A stretch of 63,976 bases of DNA, filler included, from Dugesia japonica (taxonomy: Eukaryota), in assembly GCA_001938525.1 (NCBI GenBank). It is 7 parts of 7 records of this genome, joined end to end, with 100 filler letters (N's around TTAATTAATTAA, not from the genome) between each part and the next. Parts side by side here need not be neighbours in the genome. Positions count along the whole stretch, not along the records: positions 28,329 to 38,246 come from MQRL01607009.1; 6 more parts are not named here. The stretch is one strand, 5' to 3'. A program made the translations under genes and the position numbers. Positions 3,164 to 63,976 of the stretch are shown piece after piece. The notes under the pieces were generated by a model, which worked only from the letters and a program-made list of their open reading frames with translations, was not told the DNA's origin and ran no database searches. Every line of letters starts with the position of its first letter. Positions within the stretch are counted from its first letter, which is position 1.

Positions 3164-3799
<636 letters not shown>

Positions 3800-10232: not shown

Positions 10233-11270
10233 ATGTCTCAGGATGACAGTATAATTTAAGAAATCGAGAAATTAAAATTGAAAACGATAGTGATATGAAG
10301 GAAAATGTCAATGTTACTGAAGACGGCAATGTATCTAATGGATCCAATTGTTAGAAATTACCTGTTGCGCAGTACGGAGGAGATTTTGTGAATTTTGTGG
10401 ATTTTATGAGAGATTATTATATGTATAACAAAGCCTATGTATGGCCAGAAAAAATTATGGTAATAAGGTTACCACTTTATTTAAAGGGAGCTGCGAGAGA
10501 CGCATATTGTCAATTAAATGCAGCAAAATTGGATACTTGGGCGCATTGCAAAGATGCACTAGCTGAACGATTAGTTAGTGAAGATGTTGGCAGAATTATG
10601 AGAAAGAAATTCTATAACCGAGTTCAAAATGAAAATGAATCTGTAAATGAATTTGCATTTGATTTAAGCACTTTGTATGAAATAATTAATAGACAATCAC
10701 CAAAAGTTTGAAAGAAACAGCAATTTTCAACAAATATCTCCAAAAAGAACCGTAATATGTTTCAGGTGCCTAGCAAAAGAGCATACTGCTAATCAATGTC
10801 GCACAAAGTTATTCAATGAAGGAAATCGAGAAAGTAGAAGATCAATTAAATGCAATAATTGTGGACGATTAGGAAATTTATCTAGAGATTGCACTGCACC
10901 AAGGTCACGTAGCCCATCAACCTCTCGATCTCCACAAAAAAATCGGCTGAATTTTAAAAGTCAACAACAATGCTATTCACGCAAAAAGTATGGCCACATT
11001 GTAAGATCATGTCCAAATAATGTGGATCGATTTCATAAACCAATATTAAAGAAATCGGTAAAAATTGATAATAATCCTGTAGTAAATGCTACTTTCTCAC
11101 CTGATAATGATTTCAGAGGAAATTTTGAGGCAGAAATGGATGAAATGAGACAAAAATTGGATAGATTCACTACAAATGGCTCGGATAGTGAAAATGATAA
11201 TCTAATGATATTTTTTGAAAATGAAGATGCAGAAATTGATAAAAAGATGCCAGAAAACAATTGTCAAATT
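10233..11270 (+). pseudogene. gag: Ty3/gypsy-type Gag (capsid plus two CCHC zinc knuckles), disrupted
   Basis: RLPLYLKGAARDAY and FYNRVQNENESVNEF (retrotransposon gag/MHR-like); knuckles CNNCGRLGNLSRDC at ~10851 and CYSRKKYGHIVRSC at ~10970. Confidence 0.88.
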
Positions 11271-11299
11271 TCACCCATTATTGACGACGTGGTAGTGGA

Positions 11300-11670
11300 C
11301 AAAGGTCGAATTTTATATCCACATTTGTCGAAAAATATCGAAAATTGCGAGCAAGATATGTAAGAGATCTTAACAATTTTGAAGGAATTAACGAAAATGA
11401 AGTTTCCATTAGAAAAATTGGAAAACGTAATGAGAAAATGTATCTCGAATTTTGGTACTGGAGTAAAGCATATTACTGATATGAGACTCGTTATGGCGAA
11501 AATTGGTCAAGAGATGCAAAGAAATTCTTGGTTAGAAGACATATGTGTAGTTATTGTTAATGAAAATGACGATAAACCTACGAGAAATATTAGTGCCTAC
11601 AGTACTGTTAAAGAACAAACTCAAACGATCAGCGAACTTAAAGGATGGAAAAACGTTAAATTGAAATTTG
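11300..11670 (+). pseudogene. Divergent Bcl-2-like domain, copy A, directly upstream of the env signal peptide
   Basis: ILYPHL...ISELKGWKNV with the same 111-codon LYP-to-GW spacing and the same position relative to env as copy B; one in-frame stop at 11361. Confidence 0.45.
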
Positions 11671-11771
11671 CTAATCAAATATTGAATGATATAGATACTT
11701 ATATTGTGGATATTAGAATGAAAAAGCAAGCCAAGCAAAGAAACACTCTATTTTCAACGAAATTTGGGGGC

Positions 11772-13180
11772 ATCTTACCATGGTTGTTTATAATGATCAT
11801 TATGATTAGCCTGGTTAATAACACATCGTCACTAACCACTTATGACTGTTCACATACCGAATTAGGAAAGTTTTATTCATTAGTCGATGTGGCGGAATGT
11901 CAAGGAGCTTATCCATTGAAACTGAAAACTGAGGAAAATGTACCATATTATATTTATCGGCAGTCAGGTTTTCGTCGGACAATGGTTTGCGAATGTATAG
12001 TGAAACGAACAACTTTTATCTTCTATTGCATAAAGTGGAGTCATTCGTCATTAAAAGATTTTAAATCAATACCAAGGTCAGTGGATATCACACCTGAAAA
12101 TTGTAAATCGGCTTTTCAAACAAAGGAAATTAAAATTAATGCGGAGATTAAACTATCTGCGAAAAAGAATTTTATTATCAGAGAATCATTTACCGTTAAA
12201 GGAAAACTTTTGGAGAATGGAGATTTTGAGGGTGAATCTTAAAAAATTGTGGAAAGTATTGTTGATAAAACAATGATTGTTGAAGAGTATTCAACAGAAT
12301 TACGAGAATTTGAAGGGACGTTTGACGAAGTAACAGGACAAAGGCAAACGCACCCGTTTTGTGACATGTATAGTACTTGTTGTCACACAGGAGAATCTAT
12401 GCCTGTGTATAAAGTAAAAGTAAAGAAGTGTAATTTAGTTCAATTGAAAAGGACAGAATTTACTGAAATAGCTGGGGAACATATTAAAGTCAAACTGGAT
12501 GTTTCTATAGTTCCTAAAAATGAACGTGGTAGACAAATGTCACCTGTCGAAAGAAACCCAACACCTATTGTGCTTGTAACATCAGTAAAAGAGGAAGGAA
12601 TGAGATTTATAAGAAAAGAAACTGTCATAAAATGCGGTTAAACAGTATACGAAACAAATTATAAAGGTGTATATGTGTCCAAATCAAGAATTGAAGATGC
12701 TAAGGAGAATATACATATTCCGGAAATCAAATTAGCGCAATATTTTAATAATAATATAGTCTTTATTTTTCATTTTCAAATTGGAACAATATCAAATTTA
12801 TATCGGGAAATAATATTAAATGATTGTAAATTGAACAGAGAAATTTTACAAAGTCGGATGACAATGGTAATGACAAACCCAAATGTGGTTGCACCCATGC
12901 TTATTGATGAGAATGGGATATTTGCTAGAGTCTTGGGGGAAGCATTGTATAGGTATAAATGTAAAGAGATACCGGTTAAAATCATAAAATATGATGAATG
13001 TACGAACAAATTGCCAGTTAATGTAGATGGAACATTGAGATTTATGGAACCTATAACAAGAGTGTTAATAGATAAAGATTCAAAGCCAAAGAAATTAGAA
13101 TGCAATCGGGTGTTAGCACCTTTAAACAAATTAGCTCCTGATACTTGGATATCATTTCCAGGCAGAAAACAATTAGAGCC
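11772..13180 (+). pseudogene. env: Envelope glycoprotein, chuvirus-G / herpes gB-like class III fusogen, copy A (C-terminally truncated)
   Basis: Signal peptide ILPWLFIMIIMISLVNNTSS, then LTTYDCS...YSLVDVAEC, ECIVKRTTFIFYCIKWSHSS, NDCKLNREIL and GIFARVLGEALYRYKCKEIPVK...ECTNKLPV...FMEPITRVL...C; single frame with stops at 12240 and 12639. Confidence 0.8.
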
Positions 13181-28328: not shown

Positions 28329-28400
28329 TTTCGTTTCGTTACGTCACGGCGGGGGGGGGCTCTGCATGTGTGTGCGCCAGTGCGCTACTATCTATCTACT
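28329..28400 (-). mobile_element. Probable Maverick/Polinton-type terminus related to 9027-9100
   Basis: Reverse complement begins agtagatagatagtagcgca...gcagagccccc...gtgacgtaacga, with the same motif order as 9027-9098. Confidence 0.45.
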
Positions 28401-28789
28401 TTGGATAGAATTGATAATAGTGAAAGGCCTGGTATTTATACAATTAACGATATTGAGAAGGCGCAAAAACATATGCTTTCCCCAATACAAAGAGAGAAAA
28501 TAATATCAATAATGGTCGATAAATTAGCAAGAAGGAGTAATGGAGACGATGTAAATTTTGAATCACTATTGCACGCAGATCATTTTAAAAGGACAATGCG
28601 CAATTTTGTAGATAGATTTTTGGGGGAATGCAATGGTTTGGCAATATATTCTCATGTATTTTATTTGGGTGGTATGTATTAACATTTTTAAAATTAGCAG
28701 GTCATCAAATACTTTCTCTAAGACAATTACATGCAGTTTTTGGTTACACATGGAAATTAGGAGCATGTTTCTGCCCATTTATTGCAAAA

Positions 28790-31700
28790 CCATAGTGAAA
28801 AAATAAAAAATCTAGAAAATAATCGAGGCGTCTATACAGTAAACTTAGATGATGAGCAGGAGTTAAAAAAATTAACTAATGATAGATCATCAGGTACAGA
28901 ATATAAACCATATAAACAAGAAAATATTGAATTAGAACAGATAAAAATAGATGATTCAACACAATATAAATATCAAAAGAATTACTCAATGTCAGTCATA
29001 GATTCGGAAAATAATAGACCCACAACCGATATTATAATAAATGGAATTAGTATACCTTTATTAATAGATACAGGAGCAGTATGCTCAATAATAAAAGAAC
29101 CATGATTAAATAAAGCCTAAAGACAGAAAATAAAAAATTATAAACCAGAAGGTATAAAATCATTCAGAGGTCATATAATAAAAACAAAAGGCATAATTGA
29201 ATGTACGGTCTTAATTGGACAAGAAATTGTGACACATCCATTTAGAGTGATGGAAAATGGAACATAAAATTGTATTTTAGGTATGGATTTTCTGGAAAAA
29301 TTAAAAGGGTACGTCATTGATCTACAAGATAGCACATTAAAAATGATAACATCATTACCGGTGCAAGATGTAGGTAATGTAATAATAACAGTGAAACGCT
29401 GTAGCGAATGTATAATACCTGTAAATACAGAAGTACAGAATAATAAATCATATATTTTTGAACCAAATGATAAATTGATAGAAAAACATAATTTATCAAT
29501 AATGTCTGGATGTGTAGAGCCAAGAAAAGGGATAATACCAATGAGAATAGCTAATTACAACAATTACGATGTAAAACTCCGAAAAAATACAAAATTAGGA
29601 AAATTGTTTGAAAATGGAAATGAATATGAAATATATGAAATTGTAGTTGAAGAACAAAATAAAGAGTGAACTTACAGAGGCAGAATGAACAAGCCCAAAA
29701 TACAAAATCAGTGAAAAAGGGTTGTCAACTAAATAATCATGAATTATCTGAACTTATAATGGAAAAACAAGAAAAAATTGATAAAGTAATTGACAAAAAA
29801 TTAATAAAACAGAAACAAGCAAAATATTATGAAAAAGCGAAAATAACAAATACAGATCTTACTATAAATCAGAGACAACAACTACAGAAATTATTAGATA
29901 AATATGAGCATGCATTCGCTAAACATGAGTTTGATATGGGAGGAACAAATATTATAAAACATATAATCGATACAGGTGATGCAAGACCAATAAAACAACG
30001 ACCGTATGTGGCACCATATGCGTTAAGACCAGAAATCAAAAGACAAGTAGCGGAAAAGAAAGCGAATGGAATCATACGAGATAGTTTTTTTCAATGGGCA
30101 TCGCCAATAGTACCAGTTAAAAAGAAAGATGGTGAAATTAGAATGTGTATCAATTACAGAAAACNNNNNNNNNNNNNNNNNNNNNNNNNNNNNNNNNNNN
30201 NNNNNNNNNNNNNNTACATGAACAATTTAATAAATTAATGAATGCAAAATATTTTGCAAGTTTAGATGCTAATAAAGGTTATAATGTATACCTAGTACAA
30301 GAAGAGGATCAAGAGAAAACAGCATTCTGTACTGATGATGGACTATATGAATTTGTTAGATTACCGTTTGGACTATGTAATGCACCAGCTACATTTCAAA
30401 AATTAATGAACACAGTGATAACAGGTGTGGAGCATGTAGTTGTATATGTGGATGATATACTCATAGCATCTGAAACATTTGAACAACATTTAATTAATAT
30501 AGAAAATGTATTGCCCAGATTTAGAAAAGCGAATATTAAACTAAAACATAACAAAATGTAAATGGGCAGAGGAAAGTGTTTTATTTCTCGGACATATTGT
30601 ATCATCAAAGGGATTGGAGCCAAATCCAGAAAAGATAAAAGCGGTCCAAAAGTTTCCAGTGCCAAAAAGCGTACAACAATTACAAGGATTTAATGGGTTA
30701 GTGGGATATTATCGGAGATTTATACAAGGTTTTGCAAAGATATCAGCACCATTGGTAGAAATAACAAAAGGTATGAAAACAAAAGGTGAAAGTAAAAATG
30801 TCATGATTGTAGAACAATAAGATGAAAAATCAAGGAAGCCTCAGAAGAAATGGGGCCCAAAACAACAAGAAGCTTTTGATACATTAAAACAACGATTGCT
30901 AACAGCTCCAATATTAAGATACCCTGATTTTACAAAGCAATTCATAGTAATGACAGACGCAAGTGGATTTGCCATGGGAGTAGTACTCGGTCAAGAAGAC
31001 GAAAAAAATTAAGATTATGTAATTGCATATGCCAGTAGAATGTTAAAAGGAGCAGAGACAAGGTTTTTAACAATTGAAAAAGAATGTTTAGCTATCATAT
31101 TTCCGTTAAAACAATTTAGACCATTTATATATGGAACAGAAATAATTATCCGAACAGATCATAAACCATTAAAGGGTCTATGGAAAAATAAAGATGCATC
31201 CAGTAGAATACTGAAGTGGGCAATGAAAATCCAAGATATGAGCATACGTATTATATACATGCCAGGTAGAGCAAATAAAAATGCCGATGCATTATCAAGA
31301 ATTCCGGAAATAAATATATTAGAAATGATGTCAATTGTTATGACAGGAACAAACCCAAAAATGTTTTTGGAGGAACAAAATAAAGATATAAAATACAAGA
31401 GGTTAAGAAGATGATGCTTCAAGAAAAGAATACTAAATATAAAATGTATAAGAATTTGCTTATGTAAAATAATTTAGGAAAAAATCTGATGGTTGTACCA
31501 GATTCTCTAAAACAATTGTTATTATTACAATATCATGATGGAGCGCTCAGAGGGCACTTGTCTACTAGAAAAACCACGTCAAGATTACTACAAAAATACA
31601 ATTGGGATAATATCAAAGAGGATGTAAAGAAGTGGTGTCAAGCATGTAGTATCTATGCCACAAGAAAGAATACAAGAATAAAAACCAAGGTTCCATTACA

Positions 31701-32580
31701 ACCAATGCCAATACCCAGCTCACCAATGGAAACATGTGCAATGGGTTTTTTTAAGCAAGTTACCAACAACAATAAAAGGCAACAAACATATATAAGTATT
31801 CAATGATTATTTTACAAAGTGGGCAGAGGCATTTCCTACAAAAGATGAAACAGCAGATACAGTAGCAAAGTTATTAGTTGAAAAGATAATATACAAATAT
31901 GAAGCACCAAAAAAGCTGCTATCAGATAGAGGGAAAGGTTTCCTCAATGAAGTCATACAAAGAATAACAAATATGTTCGATATTAAAAAAATTAATACGA
32001 CGGCTTATTACCCACAAACTGATGGGTTAGTTGAAAGATTTAACGGTACATTATGTAATAGATTGGCAGTTTTCGTAAATAAACATCAAAATGATTGGGA
32101 TCTATTCATTAAACCAACATTGTTCATACATAATACAACTGAGAACGAAGCCACTGGATATTCACCATTTTATCTTATGTATCTAAGACAAAATCATATG
32201 CCTATAGATATAAAATTTGAGCCAATTTTATCACAGTATATGGATAATCCAGATTATGTTACGAAAATGCAAGAAAGATTACAAGAAGTATATAAACAGG
32301 CCAATCTAAAAGTAAAATTCAAACAGGATCAATACAAAGACTATTATGACAGAAAACCTAAAAAACATAATTTTAAAGTAGGAGATAAAGTGAGGATAAA
32401 GACACCAGTTACACAAAAAGGGTTAACAAATAAATTAGCAAGACCTTATAAAGGTCCATATGAAGTAGTAAAAACAACTCTTGCGAACTTGCACGTATAA
32501 AAAATAAAAAAGATGATCCCAAGATTGTGGCAGTTAACCAATGCAAAATGGCAGATGCAGAAACTGATCAAGATCACAAA
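28790..32580 (+). pseudogene. pol: Ty3/gypsy Pol: aspartic protease, spacer, RT, RNase H, integrase
   Basis: LLIDTGA; WASPIVPVKKKDGEIRMCINYR; LPFGLCNAPATFQ; YVDD; MTDASG; IEKECLAI; TDHKPL; NADALSR; HHCC-like YHDGALRGH...CQAC; YPQTDGLVERFN; YKGPYEV. Many stops and frameshifts. Confidence 0.96.
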
Positions 32581-33457
32581 ATTCATTATCACTCTTTGCA
32601 CTAACTTTAGTGACATTATTAAAAATAGGCGCAGCTCAGCTGGAGAAAGAAGAAAGTTTTGGTATTATAAAAGTGATAATATATTCCAATAGAATCGTAC
32701 TCAAGGCACCAAAAAATATAGCAATCGCTGCAACAATAAAAGAGCAAGTAATCGAATATGTCACAGCAAATGAATACATCACGAAGAAGAGATATGTTCT
32801 CAAAGCAATATCAATAAAATTTAACAAAGGATAGGCCAGATAGAAATAAAAGGACTAGAAGCTGATACAACATATAGTATTTGGATACACTATAGAATGA
32901 GTGGAGTCAAATAATTGAGACAGTAAAGATTACACTACCAATGAAACTAATTGCATAACAAAGATATTTAATGACTATTTCAAAAATACAGGAAAAACTG
33001 AGTACAACAAAACCACAGACAAAGGCAAAATTTATGACTATCCCTACAAGACAAGAGAAGTTGAGTACAATCAAACTACAGATAGAAACAACTGTTCATC
33101 ATAATACACTAATACATAGTAGTTCTACAGGGAAAACGACAACAAATGCGATGACCAACAAAAATTCAAAAGGAGATAGAAAGACTTTGAATAATAACAT
33201 GAAATTAGATCATCAACAACNNNNNNNNNNNNNNNNNNNNNNNNNNNNNNNNNNNNNNNNNNNNNNNNNNNNNNNNNNNNNNNNNNNNNNNNNNNNNNNN
33301 NNNNNNNNNNNNNNNNNNNNNNNNNNNNNNNNNNNNNNNNNNNNNNNNTATAGGTGGAAGAGGCAGCGTTATCGGCGTCGCAGTGCCCCACAAATTCCGA
33401 ATTATGTCCAATGGACATTGGTTTGAACACCCAATACCAAATTTGCAAAAAATGTTA
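32580..33457 (+). pseudogene. Accessory ORF: signal peptide, FN3-like domain, Thr-rich repeats, Cys-rich tail
   Basis: SLSLFALTLVTLLKIGAAQ leader; IEIKGLEADTTYSIWIHY matches the FN3 tyrosine-corner pattern; duplicated MTI...QEKLST.K.Q repeats; ends QCPTNSELCP...ICKKC*. Frameshifted and interrupted by a gap. Confidence 0.45.
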
Positions 33458-33808
33458 AAATTCTATATCATTATTTATATATATTTTTATTTATATAATA
33501 AGCTACTAATACATGTGGTAGTATATAGGACTAGTCAGTCCTTAAAATCAAAAATTAATTATTCCATTCTTTTAGAAATAACATCTCAACAAAAGATATC
33601 AGAAACAAGCCAGATCAATCAACACATTATAATTTATAACAGAAAAAACACAAAATACCATTCCTTTACACATTACATAATGTAGTCAAAACAGCACGTT
33701 ACACACATTCGACAATCAAATAATAATATACAGAAAACACATCAATACAAGCAAGCAGAACATAACATAACAAGAAAAGATAACAAAAACAGCGAATTAG
33801 CACAGTCA

Positions 33809-34994
33809 ATGCCCAATAAATCTACACATTCGGCAAACATTCCTTCATTCTCATCCTTAGTCACAAAAGGTGTCGCGCATTTTTATAACCATATACAAAG
33901 TTTTGTGTTCAAAGTTAAAGATAGTGAGCCTAGGATAGAAGTTTTTAATGGTGCAAATACAATCCCGAATGTCTTAAAGAACAACACTTTTGATAAAGAT
34001 ATCATTATGATACGATTTCAGAAGGCTCAGAGATACTCACTACAACAATTGATTGGATATATAGAAATAGAGTGAGATCCACAAGAAGCACTAATAAATA
34101 GCAAACGAGTACTTAAAGAAATTAGATTACATGTTACAAAAACTCCTATTAGATTCTCATATAAAAAGAGATATACATATGCTTGCAAACAACACATTGA
34201 TATTAGAAGGACAAATAGATCCAGGAATGAACGAAATAAAAGTTGCAATACACGATATTCCAGCCGTTCTTTGTGTAGAGTTAATTTATCATGATCGTAT
34301 TCCTGTACCTTTCCCTACATATACTGCTATAAAAGGGCATTGCGCAGTAAACTATATAGATTTAATTAACTATACATCGTTCCTCAAATATGCAATCTTA
34401 ACAGAAACTGATATTGAACAATTAATAGTATATGTAGATATGATAACAGTCAAGGATTCATATTTCAATCTGCAAGTGGTAGAGTTGACTATATTAGATA
34501 ATAAAGGAGAAATTATATTGGACCAAACCCTATGTCAACGAGAAAGGATAAAGCATTTTGACACGCCGAGTACAGGGTATACCCATGAAAAGATAAAGAA
34601 ATTTCAAGATGCATATCCTATAATTCTGAAGGCACGGCAGTTACTGTACGGGAAAATACTAGTCGACTTTGAATTAGGAAATAAACTAACGAGTCTACAC
34701 ATTGACCACAGACATGTTATTGGTATCATAGATCTTGCGGAAGACAGATGGCATAAGACGTATACTCCAAATGTAAAGAAGTTGAAATTGATCCACCATA
34801 TGGAAGCAGTATTCAAATCCATAAGGCAGGATAGGGTCATCGGAGATATGTTGAAAACAGCGAGAGAAAAAGCGCAGGAATCAACAGCAAAACGAATAAC
34901 ATTCATAAAGATTACATACAAACAAATAATTACTCAGCAAACATGGCAAGATTCTATATATCCTGGTAATAATCCGGTTATGGAAGGTATATAA
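33809..34994 (+). pseudogene. Accessory ORF ending in a REX4/ISG20-like DEDDh 3'-5' exonuclease fold with altered catalytic residues
   Basis: LIVYVDMITV...VELTILDNKGEIILDQTL...IKHFDTPSTGYT...LLYGKILVDFELGNKLTSLHIDH...IIDLA follows the REX4-family pattern VAIDCEMV...ARVSIVN..G.V..D....SGI...LL.GKILVGH.L.NDL..L.L.H...DTA. Confidence 0.7.
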
Positions 34995-34999
34995 AATAA

Positions 35000-35740
35000 T
35001 GCGCCAATATTGCAAGAAGTCATGACTAGAGAAAAGGAGAAACCAGATAGTGTGATATGAATATTAGACTCTGGAAGAGAATAGAGAAGAGACAGATGGA
35101 AGCACATATAGTCAATCCAATATGGGTAATGACATGGATATAGAATGGGACGAGGTAGACTTACCAGAAGAACGTAGATTACATAACGACACTGGTGAGC
35201 AGCAGAGACTGATTGATGATATAATACAACGAAATCCTAAAGAGATACAAACTGATATGGACGCATCTGAGGTTGACGAAATTCCAGAAAGGACCATGTC
35301 ACAAAGAGACCAAAAGGAGTCTGAAAGTGAAACTGAATACTGGTCAGGTGAGGAAGTGGAGGATCTTAGTTTAGATCAAGTAAGAGGAGATCGCGAGGTA
35401 ATAACGTATTATACGAATAGCGACAGTGATGATCTTGGTCCTGAGCCACAAATTGATATATATGAACCTGGTACTGTCAATTTAAATAGAGCCATCAAAA
35501 TAGATAAGTTGGATGGAAATATTAACAATGCAAAAATAACTTTGTAAAGGATATCGGGTAAAGATATGCAACTACAGTTTGGAAAGAAACGCATTAGATT
35601 GACAACCATTAAAGAAGATAGTAAGAAGACATTAAAGTTTGTTGTTGAAAATGTTTTGCTTAACACCATTGCTGTCACGAAAAGGGTGCCACTCTTACAC
35701 TTTCCGTTAACAATGATTAAAACACATTATATATATCTAG
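35000..35740 (+). pseudogene. Accessory ORF, strongly acidic, unknown function
   Basis: ORFs 35122-35547 and 35566-35802 are in one frame separated by a single stop; D/E-rich. Confidence 0.45.
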
Positions 35741-35798
35741 TAATTATTATTATAATGTCTTTCTTTTTATACCTATTATTGATATTATATATTTTAGA

Positions 35799-37076
35799 AT
35801 GAATTCCGATTTTCAATCTCAGCAACTATTTTTATTAGACAAAACACGCATCATATTATATGAAAAACATAGAAGCCTCACGAATCCTTATAACTACTGT
35901 TGGCAGGACATTGAATTAATTATCTTGTTCATTGAAGACGACCCCATATGTCCCTTATGTTATGACCAGCCTTTATTACCTCGAATAGCACCCTGTGGAC
36001 ACTTCTTTTGTTTCGCTTGCATAACCCAATACTTTCATGTCACCAACTCTGATAATGTACCTTGCTCTTCTTGTAGAACTCAAAGAGTATTTAACACTTA
36101 ACTAAAACGTGACAACTTTTGTTACATTACTCGACCCCATATCGAACAATTCATTCCATTAACCCTCCTGATTAAAATGCCATATAATAATTGCACACGT
36201 TTTGCTCATCTTACCCATGTAATTCAGCAGATGGATGTCCCTGATAGTTGTAACTCCATTAGCGATTTCCAAGACATCTGCATCCAATACGATTCTCTAT
36301 CAATAAAACAGATTAACAACAACATTAGGACAGTTAATTATGGCCAGTTCACAGCAGCGCAAAAAAGGAAATTGATCAAGCTACTTAAAATTGAAAGAAA
36401 ACATTTTACATTCAATATTAAAATTCTTGATAAGTTTGAACACGAAAAGTCGTTCACAGATAAGACCCGTAATGAGGATAAATTCAATCTCCTCGCCCAT
36501 TACTCTACACTAACAAATGTTGAGTTATTTTACCAAACAGCTATCTTCCCACGAACTTTTCTCAACAATGTGCAGACAAAAATGTTTTTAGACAATCAAT
36601 CTGAAGACATTCCCTTTCGCATGGGTGGATACATCACAGCCATGGAAGAAGTAATCGTTGATCACCATTTAGATCTAAATAGACCATATCATTTCCTACC
36701 TAATCGAACAAAAATTAGAATAGTGACAATCCGAATGGAGACATCCTCCACCTCAAGACATCTTGGCCCATTAAGTTATCTACACATTCATGCCAATATA
36801 ACAAGGCTAGCAATAGAGAGGCGTAATAAAGATTTACAAGATATCGCAAACGAGAGTAAAGCTAGAGTAAAGCCGGGTCAACTGGCCAGAATACTCACCC
36901 GTCACTCCAATACAAAAGCAATGGATATTTTCTCTAGAAGCCCTTCTGTTTGCCCATCTTCCATAAATCCAGAAGCCGAATTCCCGGCATGTATTTTCAA
37001 TGAACCTTGTTCCAATGATACCTTTTCACCGTATCACGATATTGCATGTCCTTATTTCGCGTTTACCCAAAGATGA
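35799..37076 (+). pseudogene. Intronless RNF10/Mag2-like C3HC4 RING E3 ligase inside the retrotransposon (426 codons, one internal stop at 36099)
   Basis: QLFLL...WQDIELI...CPLCYDQPLLPRIAPCGHFFCFACITQYF...CSSC, then LK...IPLTLLIK, FYQTAIFPRTFLNNVQTKMF and YHFLP...IRIVTIRM; these follow the order of RNF10 blocks (ELFLQAN, W..VEQV, RING, FYQAEDGQHMFLHP.N...L, YLSHLP..CEFSICEL). Confidence 0.75.
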
Positions 37077-37091
37077 TGGAGCATCTTTTTT

Positions 37092-37101
37092 GGAGAGGGA
37101 A
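37092..37101 (+). promoter_or_regulatory. Polypurine tract
   Basis: T-run followed by ggagagggaa, 4 nt before TGTTG. Confidence 0.7.
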
Positions 37102-37105
37102 CGTT

Positions 37106-37826
37106 TGTTGAGGTTTGAATGTACAAGCATACAATACACACAACACACAAAAAACAAGCAGAGTAATATAACTCAAAATCTATTCAATCAAAATCTCCAA
37201 ATCAATTATTCAATCCAAGTCCTCGAATCAAGATTAATCAATCCAACTCAAATATGCTGATATTACATTTTATTATTATGTCTATTATTATTTGTAAATT
37301 AATTTGAACTGAAAATTTTACAAATATGCTGACATTACATTTTATTATTATGATTGTTTGAACCTGAAAATTTTATGTTTATTATTATTTGTAAATCAAT
37401 TTGAACTTTATTATTGTTTGTAAATTAATTTGAATTAAAAATTTTATGTTTATTATTATTTCTAAGTAAAATTGTTTTGAATTTTGCACTAGGCATGAGG
37501 CCTAGTGTAAATTTTACTATAAATACTGACGTATGTCAGTTTATTTTTCAGACATTTTTAATTAAGGAAACCTCTTTCTTTAAGTGGCTTTCCTTCTTTA
37601 AATAAATTATTGCTTATAAGGTTAAGCGTATATCCTAAATAACTATTTTGAAAAGGTGATTGCTTATTCATTTATATAAGGAAGTATACAATATATAACC
37701 ATATTTATATTTTTGATAAAATATCGTCTATATAAAATATAAATCACACACAATATTACAATTATCTTAATCATTTATAACTATACTATACGAACCATAA
37801 ACTTTTGTTGAGTTAAATACCCAACA
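37106..37826 (+). repeat. Candidate 3' LTR
   Basis: Begins TGTTG right after the PPT; internal tandem repeats and TATAAAT at ~37518; ends cccAACA like the 5' LTR end at 10129. The right boundary is inferred because no second LTR is in the window. Confidence 0.55.
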
Positions 37827-38617
37827 TAACTTTGAAAATTATTTTGGAACTGCTGCAAAATTAATTGAAGACATGGATAAAGGAAAAATAATTGAAGAAA
37901 TTATAGAAGAAGAAAATACAATTATTGAAAAACAAATTCCGGATAATCAAAAGATGGAAGTGACTTGCGATTGTTACTGTAAGGAAAAGTTAAAATATTA
38001 ACTAAAAATTTCATGTTGTTTTAAATAACTAAAAATAGAGAAGGTCGTTAAAGAAAATATTTAAAAAGTGTAAGTAGTTAAAAACTTACGGATTTGTTAA
38101 TTTATTGGATTGCTTTATTACTATTGATTGCGAGACTTTCTGGTCCTGTTTGGTTTATCGATTTATTTGGGAATATTTATTATTGTGTCATTTATTTCGT
38201 GGAAACTGTTTATTATTAATACGTGAGTATTTATTTGGTATTGTAANNNNNNNNNNNNNNNNNNNNNNNNNNNNNNNNNNNNNNNNNNNNTTAATTAATT
38301 AANNNNNNNNNNNNNNNNNNNNNNNNNNNNNNNNNNNNNNNNNNNNAAAATTTTATAATTTTAAATTTTTATAATTTTATTATAATTTGTAAAATTGTCA
38401 AATTTCTGATTTTCAATAAAATATATTTTTATTGTATTTTTAAATTTTACATTATTAAAATTTTAAATAAACTTACTCAATGGAATATTTTAAAAAATGC
38501 TGATTTTTGATACTTTGCGTTTCGAATATAACTTTTTAAATTGGTTTTTAAAAAACAAATTTATATTCATCGTTTTGTTTTTGTGAATAAATCTTTTATG
38601 GAATCTAGTTTTATTAA

Positions 38618-43198: not shown

Positions 43199-44140
43199 TC
43201 AACAAACATAAAATCTTCTCACCATATCCAAATCATTTCTTGATGTAACATGGTTGTAATCAATTATATCNNNNNNNNNNNNNNNNACAACATTTTCTCC
43301 AGGAACACAAGCGAATCCGTAGCTTGGATAGTGCATAACACTGTTTGTTTCATAGGGTCCATCTACTTCACAACCTTCACATTTTACGAACTGGCTGCAA
43401 TCTGTTAGATTAATTAATATTTATAATAAATAAATTTTAGTTGTCTTACGAGATGACAGAATTCTGTCCCATCTTATATATATGTGGCTGTCTCTGTCCT
43501 TTCTCATGTGTGTGTGCATGAATCCTAAAGCATGAATAAATTCGTGTTTTACTGTTCCCTTGGAATACATGCATCCTGGATTTTGTAAATTCAATGGTTG
43601 TTTCGGTCCTCCGGTGTAACCCAATAATGAATAACATCCTTGGTCCAGAGATTGTACTTCGATGTAATGAGATGCTGTTGATTCGCTGAATTTTACACAA
43701 TTTCCGAGATCTTTCTGTAATTCCACTAAGCATTCTCGAACAACACCTTTTTTGTCATTAGCTAAAACCAATCAAATTTCATCAATATCAACATGAAACA
43801 CTTACGAAATGCTGGTGCAAAAGAAAACAAAACTTGATTGTTTGGCCATCTCTTCGTGTTGGAATAATGAGCTTTGAACTGAAACATTATAAATAGTATT
43901 ATATTATTGTATCATGTCATATACAAATTGATTACTCCATTGATTAAAGCAATATCACTCTTGTCGAGAACCATATCACCCATTTGCATGCTATTCAGAC
44001 TTCGCTTCAATAATTTCTGAACACACACAAATACAAATAAATAATTTTTAATGCTATTTTACTTGTCGAGGACATCCGCATTGACCTGCCGCGTAATTTA
44101 TTGTTGCAATAATCAATAAGAAGCAAAATAATTTCTGCAT
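43199..44140 (-). CDS. Secreted astacin (M12A) metalloprotease, 5 exons, catalytic domain only
   Basis: Signal peptide MQKLFCFLLIIATINYAAG; prodomain GDMVL; RWPNN; GCYSLLG; HEFIHALGFMHTHMRKDRD; Met-turn SVMHY; short GT-AG introns (44 and 48 nt checked); stop at 43199-43201. Confidence 0.93.
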
Positions 44141-57574: not shown

Positions 57575-58229
57575 TAGGGTGTTCCAAAAAAAATTTCGTT
57601 TTTTAAAAGTTAGGAAAAATTAAACTGAACAACAACAACTATATATATTTATAAATGTTTAAATATTTAAATATAATTTCCATTCTTCTTGATTACTTCT
57701 TGCAAATGATTTTTCAAATGATTCAACTCTTTAGGTAACTTAGAACTTGTCATCTTATTTTCCATGAAATTCTGTATATATTCCAAAAGAGAATTATTAT
57801 TAGGAAATCGTTTTTTTCTTCTATCGAATTCGAGATTTCTAAATACGAATCTATTCAATAAATTTATATCAGGTGAGTAAGGTGATTGCTTTAATAATTT
57901 AATTTGATGATCTTTACAAAACTTTTGCGTTACGACAGCCGTATGAGGACGAGCATTATCATGCATCAGCTCCAGACATACAAATAAAAGTCACATTTTC
58001 GGTTGTAACGTTGTTTATTATATTGAATTTGGATGTGATGAGTAAAACAAATATATAATAATAATAAAACAAATATAATAAAACAAATAATATAATAATA
58101 AAACTTTGATATAATAAAACAAATACAGTAAGTTTATTTTCATATTAATTAATTTAAATTGAATTGATAAATGTTTATTTTAAATTGATAATTAAATTTT
58201 CCTAAACGAGATTTCTTTGGAACACCCTA
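57575..58229 (-). mobile_element. Internally deleted Tc1/mariner element
   Basis: TIRs tagggtgttccaaa / tttggaacacccta with TA flanks; ORF 57667-57966 HDNARPH...PYSPDINL. Confidence 0.92.
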
Positions 58230-59639: not shown

Positions 59640-60045
59640 AAGAAATAACTCAGGTTGTCATGTACTGCCATGTTTTTGACGCTAAGTCGATGTGGTATCT
59701 ATTTTCCACGTCTATTTATTTTTCCAATTGAATGCAAATTATTTACTATGGTTACATGGGTGCAGTTGACCCCTGAGCAAGTTCTCGAGGAGTTTGGTCA
59801 GGATCTGCCTCAATGACTTCCTTCAATTCATTATCATTCACCAGTTGGGGGTGTTGACCATGTTGATCATTTTTCAGGTTTTCATTTCCCTGTTGGAAAT
59901 GTTGAAACCATCTCCCGCATTGACTATGACTAATAACAATATCTCCAAAGACATTGCAAATGGTTCGGTATGATTCCGCGTCAGTATTCATTTGCTTGAA
60001 ATCATACCACATACACGTGCGAATTCGGTACTTTTAGTCATCCAT
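59640..60045 (-). mobile_element. Mariner transposase N-terminal HTH fragment
   Basis: YDFK...RTICNVFGD...RWFQHFQQGNENLKND..G.P...LKEVIEADPDQTPRELA. Confidence 0.88.
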
Positions 60046-62365: not shown

Positions 62366-63431
62366 TAATTAACATCAAAATACAAACATGCATATTCAAA
62401 CTCATATTTTAGATAATTATTTACCCTCGTTTCTACAGAATGTCAATTTGGTATGTTTTTTCTTGTTTCAACTTTAAAAATGAACCAGCTAAAAATGTAT
62501 CAAAGATAGTTTGGATAATTAACACATTATCCACAAGAGAGATTGTATAATTTATAAAATATACAAAATGCTAAAATTTTAATAAAATATTAATAGACTA
62601 TATGTTTTGATTTTTGTTATGTTTCCAAAATTTTCCATCTACAAAATTGATTTTATTTTTTTTGTTTAAATAAAAAATGTAAATCAGTTGGAATTTGAAA
62701 TTTTAATAAGAAATTAAAAGAAGTCGTACTTCTAAATAAATTAAGAATTTTCGATACAGATTACACAATTTTTTTTAAAAGTTTTAATCCCAAAAAAAAA
62801 TTGTTTCCATCAATTCTCAATATAAATAAAATAAGAGAAAATTTGAAATTGATTAATTTGAAAATTGAAAAAAACTAACTTTTAGCCATATGTAAAAATT
62901 GTATTTTCATCCCTTTTGTTAAAACAAATACTACAAAAAACACCAGAATATTTTATTTTAGAAATTTCACGAATAAAAAATAAGTAAAATTAGAATAATG
63001 AATCACTGATGGGAAATTGTGGATTTATAAAAATAAAATAAGTTAAATGATGTTATCAGTATTTAAATTATATATTATACGAGTCTCATAAGACCATTAA
63101 ATGATGAATTAGCTGGGAATCACCACAATACAAACTCTTCAGTATTAAACGAGTCTGAATAGAATTAAGCAGGCAGATATTTTGTCAACGGACAAATCTA
63201 TTAATAATTTAGCATATGAAAAATTTTTTAAAATAAATAAAGTTTCCAATTTTCATAACTAGAATGCTAATCAGTAATTACTTTTAGTAATTGAATTAAA
63301 ATTAGACTGTCATATATTTATTGGAAATTAAAATAATTGCGATACTTTAATATTTTTAATTATAATTTTTGTAATTTGATTGTAATTTATTTAATGATTA
63401 AATAAAATTTTAAATAAACTAAATACTAAAC

Positions 63432-63766
63432 CTCTACAGTTTTTAATCTATTATTCGAATAGCAATTATCTATAGAATCGTCTGATTGATATTGATCTTG
63501 CATTTGGAGTCTCATTATTGTGTGAATGAAATGTGTTCTGACACGAATAGGGTTGAATTCCACTCGACCAAGTGGATTACTACATGGATTGGGGCCACAG
63601 CCGCAAGGAAAATTACCACGATCTACTTGACATTGAATTCCATTTTGAGAACAACTACAGGTCTCGGGAACACACTGTCCAGCTACACACTGACAACCAC
63701 ACCGTTCTCGACTGGAACGAATCAGATCACAAATTTCTTTATCAACTGTTTCAATTCTAGATATTC
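63432..63766 (-). CDS. CSRNP: Exon of cysteine/serine-rich nuclear protein (CSRNP/Axud1), not in the ORF track
   Basis: IRSSRERCGCQCVAGQCVPETCSCSQNGIQCQVDRGNFPCGCGPNPCSNPLGRVEFNPIRVRTHFIHTIMRL is the CSRNP signature; ttag acceptor and GT donor. Confidence 0.93.
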
Positions 63767-63976
63767 CTAAATTTCAAAAATGTTAAACAAAAATTATCGA
63801 ATAATTTCAATAAGTGTTATTCACTGAACACATATTTTCAAAACGAATTTACTATAAAATAATTAGATTATACAAATGAAATTTCAAAACTATATATTCT
63901 CGAAAAATTTCTGAATATTTTAGTTAATAAATTACAGTTTGAACATCGTTCAAAAATTGAATATTTACAATAAAAT

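Follow-up and report, generated by a model that had tools for sequence, protein, structure and literature searches.

An intronless, broken RNF10/Mag2-like gene as the probable last accessory gene of an env-carrying Ty3/gypsy element in Dugesia japonica

The giant Burro/GYPSM1 Ty3/gypsy elements of planarians, as far as the available part of PMC6431247 describes them, carry a mononegavirus-type env between gag and pol together with accessory frames, and their cargo (AIR1, Smc, MATH/TRAF, BIR, ankyrin, BCL2, SUMO-like, midasin and dUTPase domains) has been tied to ubiquitination and, by way of a midasin-like protein, to ribosome maturation. This cargo lies in or upstream of the polyprotein, with none after the integrase, and neither RNF10 nor an exonuclease is named in that part of the source. 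Platyhelminthes GAG-ENV-POL errantiviruses, of 12–18 kb, have env directly upstream of pol (PMC13524379); RING, exonuclease, fibronectin and accessory genes are not mentioned in the main text as available, nor are RING, RNF10, C3HC4 or exonuclease in the accessible portions of seven supplements of the same article. The Vesta and Juno LTR elements of bdelloid rotifers encode a 3′-5′ exonuclease (ORF3) after the integrase, of DEDDy (RNase D) type, and the excerpted text (PMC5408684) describes no E3 ligase in them. RING domains are known from Osvaldo and Isis-like gag and from Pao elements, as a lone domain inside gag according to the sections available of PMC3630058. RNF10 itself monoubiquitinates uS3 and promotes the release of stalled 40S subunits (PMC11604940, in part).

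The locus described here shares with the two flatworm groups an env upstream of pol, with Burro the mononegavirus type of this env, accessory frames and a link of the cargo to ubiquitination, with Vesta and Juno an exonuclease-like frame after the integrase, and with the gag RINGs a RING encoded by what appears to be an LTR element. It differs in that the exonuclease is RNase T/SDN1-like, and in that the RING belongs to a near-whole, host-type ligase encoded as a separate 3′ gene. The preliminary description of this DNA knew of no retrotransposon with such a gene, and full-text literature searches, with the primary Burro paper (Grohme et al. 2018) and Repbase outside their scope, likewise showed, among the papers listed, no mobile element with an RNF10/Mag2 homologue; the available portions of PMC8532177, PMC13238120, PMC12823453 and PMC12910113 contain nothing on an RNF10-derived gene. 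What would be new is the RNF10 cargo, host-like cargo, exonuclease ORF3s and gag RINGs in LTR elements being already in print.

Table 1 Features of the D. japonica window, with positions counted along the whole stretch.
Feature	Position	Strand	Basis
Gene very probably derived from RNF10 (E3 ligase), intronless, one internal stop at 36099-36101	35799..37076	+	frame, Pfam, phmmer, alignments
C3HC4 RING, residues 51-92, eight ligands, Arg93 after last Cys	35949..36074	+	Pfam, alignment
RNF10-family central block, residues 240-314 (FYQ-x7-FL ... LP)	36516..36740	+	RING-free profile, model
Long predicted helix, residues 324-355, in place of the family's basic coiled coil	36768..36863	+	model, alignment
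C-x5-C-x8-H-x3-C motif, residues 398-417, candidate zinc site	36990..37049	+	row comparison
C-terminal piece of mononegavirus-type fusion glycoprotein (env), directly 5′ of protease	28329..28760	+	Pfam
Decayed Ty3/gypsy pol: protease, RT, RNase H, integrase	28761..32497	+	Pfam
Broken membrane-protein-like frame after integrase	32568..33530	+	read from translations
Broken frame with RRM-like stretches (by eye) and DEDDh/RNase T-type exonuclease-like domain	33686..34994	+	ESM Atlas
Acidic reading frame, one stop	35068..35802	+	translation; no Pfam match
T6 run and G-rich purine tract, candidate polypurine tract	37086..37101	+	sequence scan
Putative 3′ LTR start, cut by contig join	37102..38246	+	inferred from position
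Astacin, CSRNP, mariner-like and HSP70-like pieces, jointly	43424-43771, 63429-63773, 57670-57990, 59755-60033, 3164-3424	-	Pfam/by eye

The window, i.e. the whole stretch of 63,976 nucleotides that was analysed, includes at positions 28,329–38,246 record MQRL01607009.1 of D. japonica assembly GCA_001938525.1. In this record the RING gene extends from ATG 35799 to TGA 37074–37076 (425 codons plus the terminal stop, no frameshift), in line with the intronless frame of 426 codons and one stop claimed earlier. Its only break is a TAA at codon 101; DNA of the same composition, when shuffled, holds a mean of 25.9 stops in this frame, and one stop or fewer occurred in 0 of 2,000 shuffles. As the stop lies eight codons past the RING, the present copy could yield only a 100-residue RING peptide and is a pseudogene. 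The RING, described beforehand as intact, is so: all ligands are present (C51, C54, C66, H68, C71, C74, C89 and C92) and Pfam zf-C3HC4 scores it at 29.6 bits (cut-off 21). The C-x2-C-x11-C-x-H spacing and a Trp 16 residues upstream (Trp35) are as in RNF10/Mag2, and the similarity reported beyond the RING was recovered as well, with Trp35 and the FYQ-x7-FL and Y-x-x-LP blocks present and colinear with the RNF10 family. An alignment-based model (mean pLDDT 71) is confident over the RING, the central block (mostly 77–91) and the long helix, this confidence being largely alignment-derived. PDB sequence and fold searches matched the RING gene to generic RINGs only, and the frame after the internal stop (post-stop frame) had no PDB match at E ≤ 10. 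The terminal Cys/His motif was found in 2 of 189 rows, the window frame and protein P0189, with a weak alignment score that 70 of 2,000 shuffles reached.

Two independent routes were used to test the kinship with RNF10: a DNA pattern in metagenome loci, and phmmer against 1.84 billion proteins. Word-based protein searches with the read-through frame among proteins of near or longer length gave no match, and an alignment search with the same query gave three proteins only, none named RNF10. The DNA pattern, which drew on nothing but the RING spacing and the upstream Trp of the window frame, retrieved 103 metagenome loci; in 59 of them 200 or more residues follow the RING, and 55 of the 59 form one family. 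A profile built from 37 non-redundant family members with the RING cut away scored the post-stop frame at 8.5 bits (1 of 1,000 shuffles higher), the top value among 189 window frames, in an alignment in register at FYQ-x7-FL, the next Pro and the LP block. The central-block profile alone gave 15.9 bits (0 of 1,000 shuffles higher), for a block picked after the first alignment had been seen; a profile of the block directly after the RING found no match in the post-stop frame.

By the second route, phmmer returned 343 matches at E ≤ 0.001 (best 3.3e-10). Among the best 150 of these, 200 or more residues follow the RING in 109, of which 97 carry the central block. Cluster look-ups of ten top matches gave one protein named RNF10 (P0094, Echinococcus multilocularis), the rest being unnamed or generic, and cluster look-ups for 12 family members gave generic names or none. 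The full frame is colinear with P0094 (20% identity over 413 columns); the post-stop frame alone is not significant against it in pairwise BLAST (E 0.48) and scores above 300 of 300 shuffles by Smith-Waterman. In hhalign comparisons with up to 70 canonical members it reached 70.7% (P 3.8e-5; best of 30 shuffles 2.5%), and 98.5% together with P0189 and P0098. Similarity outside the RING is therefore weak in single pairwise BLAST, yet above shuffles in profiles. The outcome set beforehand as counting against an RNF10 origin was that of unrelated top matches resembling the frame in the RING only; the searches instead returned proteins that largely carry the central block, and that block stands above all shuffles, so that the origin first proposed is upheld. 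To judge from these alignments, the gene is almost certainly derived from RNF10/Mag2.

With RNF10/Mag2 the window protein has in common the C3HC4 RING, the upstream Trp, the central FYQ...LP block and a coiled coil, in the same order. It departs from the family in its low identity (about 20%), in having 50 residues before the RING where 100–250 are usual, in lacking the basic C-terminal tail, in its doubtful RIM, in the Arg after the RING and the terminal Cys/His motif, and in being encoded by an intronless, broken gene beside pol. A tail regex matches 64 of 99 canonical rows and an N-terminal motif 36 of 72, and the window frame has neither. In the tree its end branch is 3.0 (median 0.84), and its central block scores 15 bits against 80–88 for flatworm RNF10s. 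Arg or Lys follows the last RING Cys in all three derived proteins (window, P0189 and P0098) and in 1 of 129 canonical ones, at what we take to be the RING ‘linchpin’ position. The linchpin residue supports contact with E2-ubiquitin (PMC12919000, in part).

P0189 and P0098 are stop-free, short, strongly diverged RNF10-like proteins with a short N-terminus that starts Met-Asn, as in the window frame. The tree groups all three at 92/71 on long branches, and over the part after the RING 6 (P0189) and 16 (P0098) of 300 shuffles scored as high; kinship is no more than suggested by these comparisons, and the two proteins are candidates for intact element-borne members. When the other long rows are removed, the window frame joins two flatworm-type RNF10s at 94/70 (unstarred, with long-branch attraction possible), and the word LPR-x-x-PCGH is common only to the window frame, two Echinococcus proteins and P0175. 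These similarities are compatible with a flatworm donor of the RNF10 copy.

An FPxF RACK1-docking motif (RIM) of RNF10 is required for uS3/uS5 ubiquitylation (bioRxiv 10.64898/2026.08.26.747346, in part). The window's sole candidate of the form FPx-hydrophobic is FPAC (residues 395–398), which overlaps the Cys/His motif, while Ser-Pro stands at the aligned column; there is no RIH-type word in the frame. The RIM regex is unmatched in P0189, the closest intact relative. However, it matches no more than 45 of 99 canonical rows and nothing after the core of the named tapeworm RNF10 (P0094), so its absence says little.

The RING gene is preceded on the same strand by env, protease, RT, RNase H and integrase pieces and by three extra frames. 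Pfam Monjiviricetes_fusion matches the env piece partially (E 1.5e-6; 26.9 bits, cut-off 27); a reading of this piece by eye as BCL2-like was rejected in view of the match. About seven stops and five frameshifts were counted by eye in pol. A dUTPase-like stretch (by eye; no Pfam match) lies between protease and RT (29268–29666, +), the position described for Burro. The membrane-protein-like frame that follows the integrase has a hydrophobic leader, an FN3-like stretch (by eye), a Cys-rich piece and a hydrophobic segment; it had no profile match, and seems to run on across a gap of 128 Ns (33221–33348). In the next frame the ESM Atlas recognised RNase_T (0.93; 179 shared features), while no Pfam match was obtained, the only PDB sequence match was SDN1 (E 0.23) and the single-sequence fold had a pLDDT of 33; this frame is likely a second captured RNA-processing gene of the element. 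It has two RRM-like stretches, and its acidic catalytic positions look altered when compared to SDN1.

The acidic frame and the RING gene share an ATGA, in which the terminal TGA of the former overlaps the ATG of the latter. The T6 run with its purine tract follows the RING gene at 15 bases and is the only such combination on either strand of the window, which has three G-rich purine tracts in all. Inside the putative 3′ LTR are a small acidic frame ending C-x-C-x-C (37801–37998, +; no Pfam match) and two short hairpins (37483–37540) that flank a TATA-like word. Self-comparison within the window revealed no LTR pair; contig joins (28229–28328 and 38247–38346) cut both ends of the record, which contains neither gag nor a primer site, and gag and the 5′ LTR would lie past the join, outside the record.

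Elsewhere in the window there is a second Burro-like element (10355–15231, +). It has a retrotransposon gag, a CCHC knuckle and two fusion-protein segments of mononegavirus type, and one stretch resembles BCL2 weakly (E 0.013); behind it lies an inverted piece that looks paralogous (15628–18058, −). Host astacin and CSRNP exon pieces (Pfam) and, by eye, mariner-like transposase fragments and an HSP70-like fragment were also seen; the astacin and CSRNP pieces identify the host as an animal.

Coming after the element frames and 15 bases before the purine tract, the RING gene is probably the last accessory gene, and we consider it quite likely to be part of the Ty3/gypsy element. The LTR-retrotransposon setting proposed in the preliminary description thus stands as far as the pol domains upstream on the same strand are concerned; its other half, the LTR pair, is absent from the window, so that the position inside the element is deduced. 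Retro-capture, proposed at the same time, is likewise likely from position, strand, purine tract, the lack of a poly(A) run or target-site repeat and pol-like decay, with the missing LTR pair again on the other side. The single break of the RING gene is consistent with decay in step with pol, whose rate would predict 3.5 breaks (P 0.14).

An improbable source of this arrangement is an old RNF10 retrogene or processed pseudogene of the host that lies beside or in a dead element, outside the mobile unit, or else a chimeric assembly. Such an origin would suit a gene of which one copy is known (no second copy was found by self-comparison of the window, word-based protein searches or look-alike searches), the missing LTR pair and a base composition unlike that of pol (A 0.34, against 0.44 in pol), although this composition fits capture as well as a separate insertion; owing to the N gap between pol and the accessory block, the join could also be an assembly chimera. 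Searches of viral contigs gave no relatives of the integrase, the RING pattern, P0189 or the exonuclease frame. Neither a poly(A) run nor a target-site repeat surrounds the gene, however, although an old insertion could have lost both, and the gene sits between element-type frames and the unique purine tract, with the ATGA overlap. Its history also argues against such an origin: the core has fallen far below that of flatworm RNF10s, yet the frame keeps all eight zinc ligands and has a single stop, which points to long selection, as a neutral pseudogene would hold many more breaks. It is highly improbable that this is the RNF10 gene of the host itself, evolving fast and with a stop that stems from a sequencing error. 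There is only one break, and long branches show that RNF10 has diverged strongly in some fast-evolving lineages, but the neighbouring frames are all broken, introns are absent, and flatworm RNF10s (P0094, and P0190 by tree position) keep canonical length and core.

The reading that we favour, by a little more than even chances, is of a broken, intronless gene derived from host RNF10 that was probably captured in the distant past as the last accessory gene of an env-carrying Ty3/gypsy element, and whose intact versions would probably have acted as a deregulated 40S ubiquitin ligase. A spliced RNF10 mRNA would have been copied into the 3′ region of the element by the element's reverse transcriptase. 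Within the lineage of the element the copy would then have evolved fast, with the RING, central block and coiled coil retained, both tails lost, and the Arg after the RING and the terminal Cys/His motif newly acquired. Ribosomes that finished the acidic frame may have re-initiated at the ATGA to translate the gene, and its product may have rivalled or sidestepped host RNF10 on stalled 40S subunits, altering how these are released or decay wherever the element is expressed; the present genomic copy presumably died together with pol.

That the ribosome was still the target of this ligase is possible, with somewhat less than even chances on sequence grounds, because the parts specific to RNF10 are retained and stalled 40S subunits are what host RNF10 releases for decay. 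Without its tails the enzyme may have been more active or have escaped regulation, and it could have protected or removed ribosomes engaged on element RNA, or changed the amount of 40S. The role at stalled ribosomes suggested in the preliminary description is hypothetical: the window copy is broken, and the RNF10 motif needed for uS3 is doubtful here and absent in P0189; nothing in the data points to the link with frameshifted RNA made in the same place. Capture followed by retargeting, in which the RNF10 scaffold came to ubiquitinate another host protein (e.g. one with a silencing or antiviral role) and the new Cys/His motif held the substrate, is unlikely in itself and nearly as likely as a retained ribosome target. 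It would account for the loss of both tails, the doubtful RIM, the absent RIH-type word and the very long branch; the Arg at the presumed linchpin position is in its favour too. The ubiquitin- and apoptosis-related domains of Burro elements (PMC6431247, in part) and the linchpin's described role (PMC12919000, in part) point the same way. Against it, the central block and coiled coil specific to RNF10 have persisted through about three changes per site, and the RIM is as patchy among canonical members, the tapeworm RNF10 included, as noted above.

Extending the favoured reading of a captured 40S ligase, a flatworm env-retroelement lineage may, through long selection, have retained an RNF10-derived ligase and an RNase T-type exonuclease as a 3′ cassette seizing host 40S surveillance and decay, with P0189 and P0098 as intact members; this is a tentative and rather unlikely proposal. 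If such a cassette is real, its ligase would be the first case of a mobile element or virus encoding an RNF10/Mag2 homologue. Viruses interfere with ribosome quality control, and if the gene is real cargo, ribosome surveillance would be a battleground between retroelement and host. The pared-down protein would mark a minimal RNF10 consisting of RING, central block and coiled coil, and together with the natural Arg variant after the RING it may serve as a test of how stalled 40S subunits are recognised and why the ligase stops at one ubiquitin.
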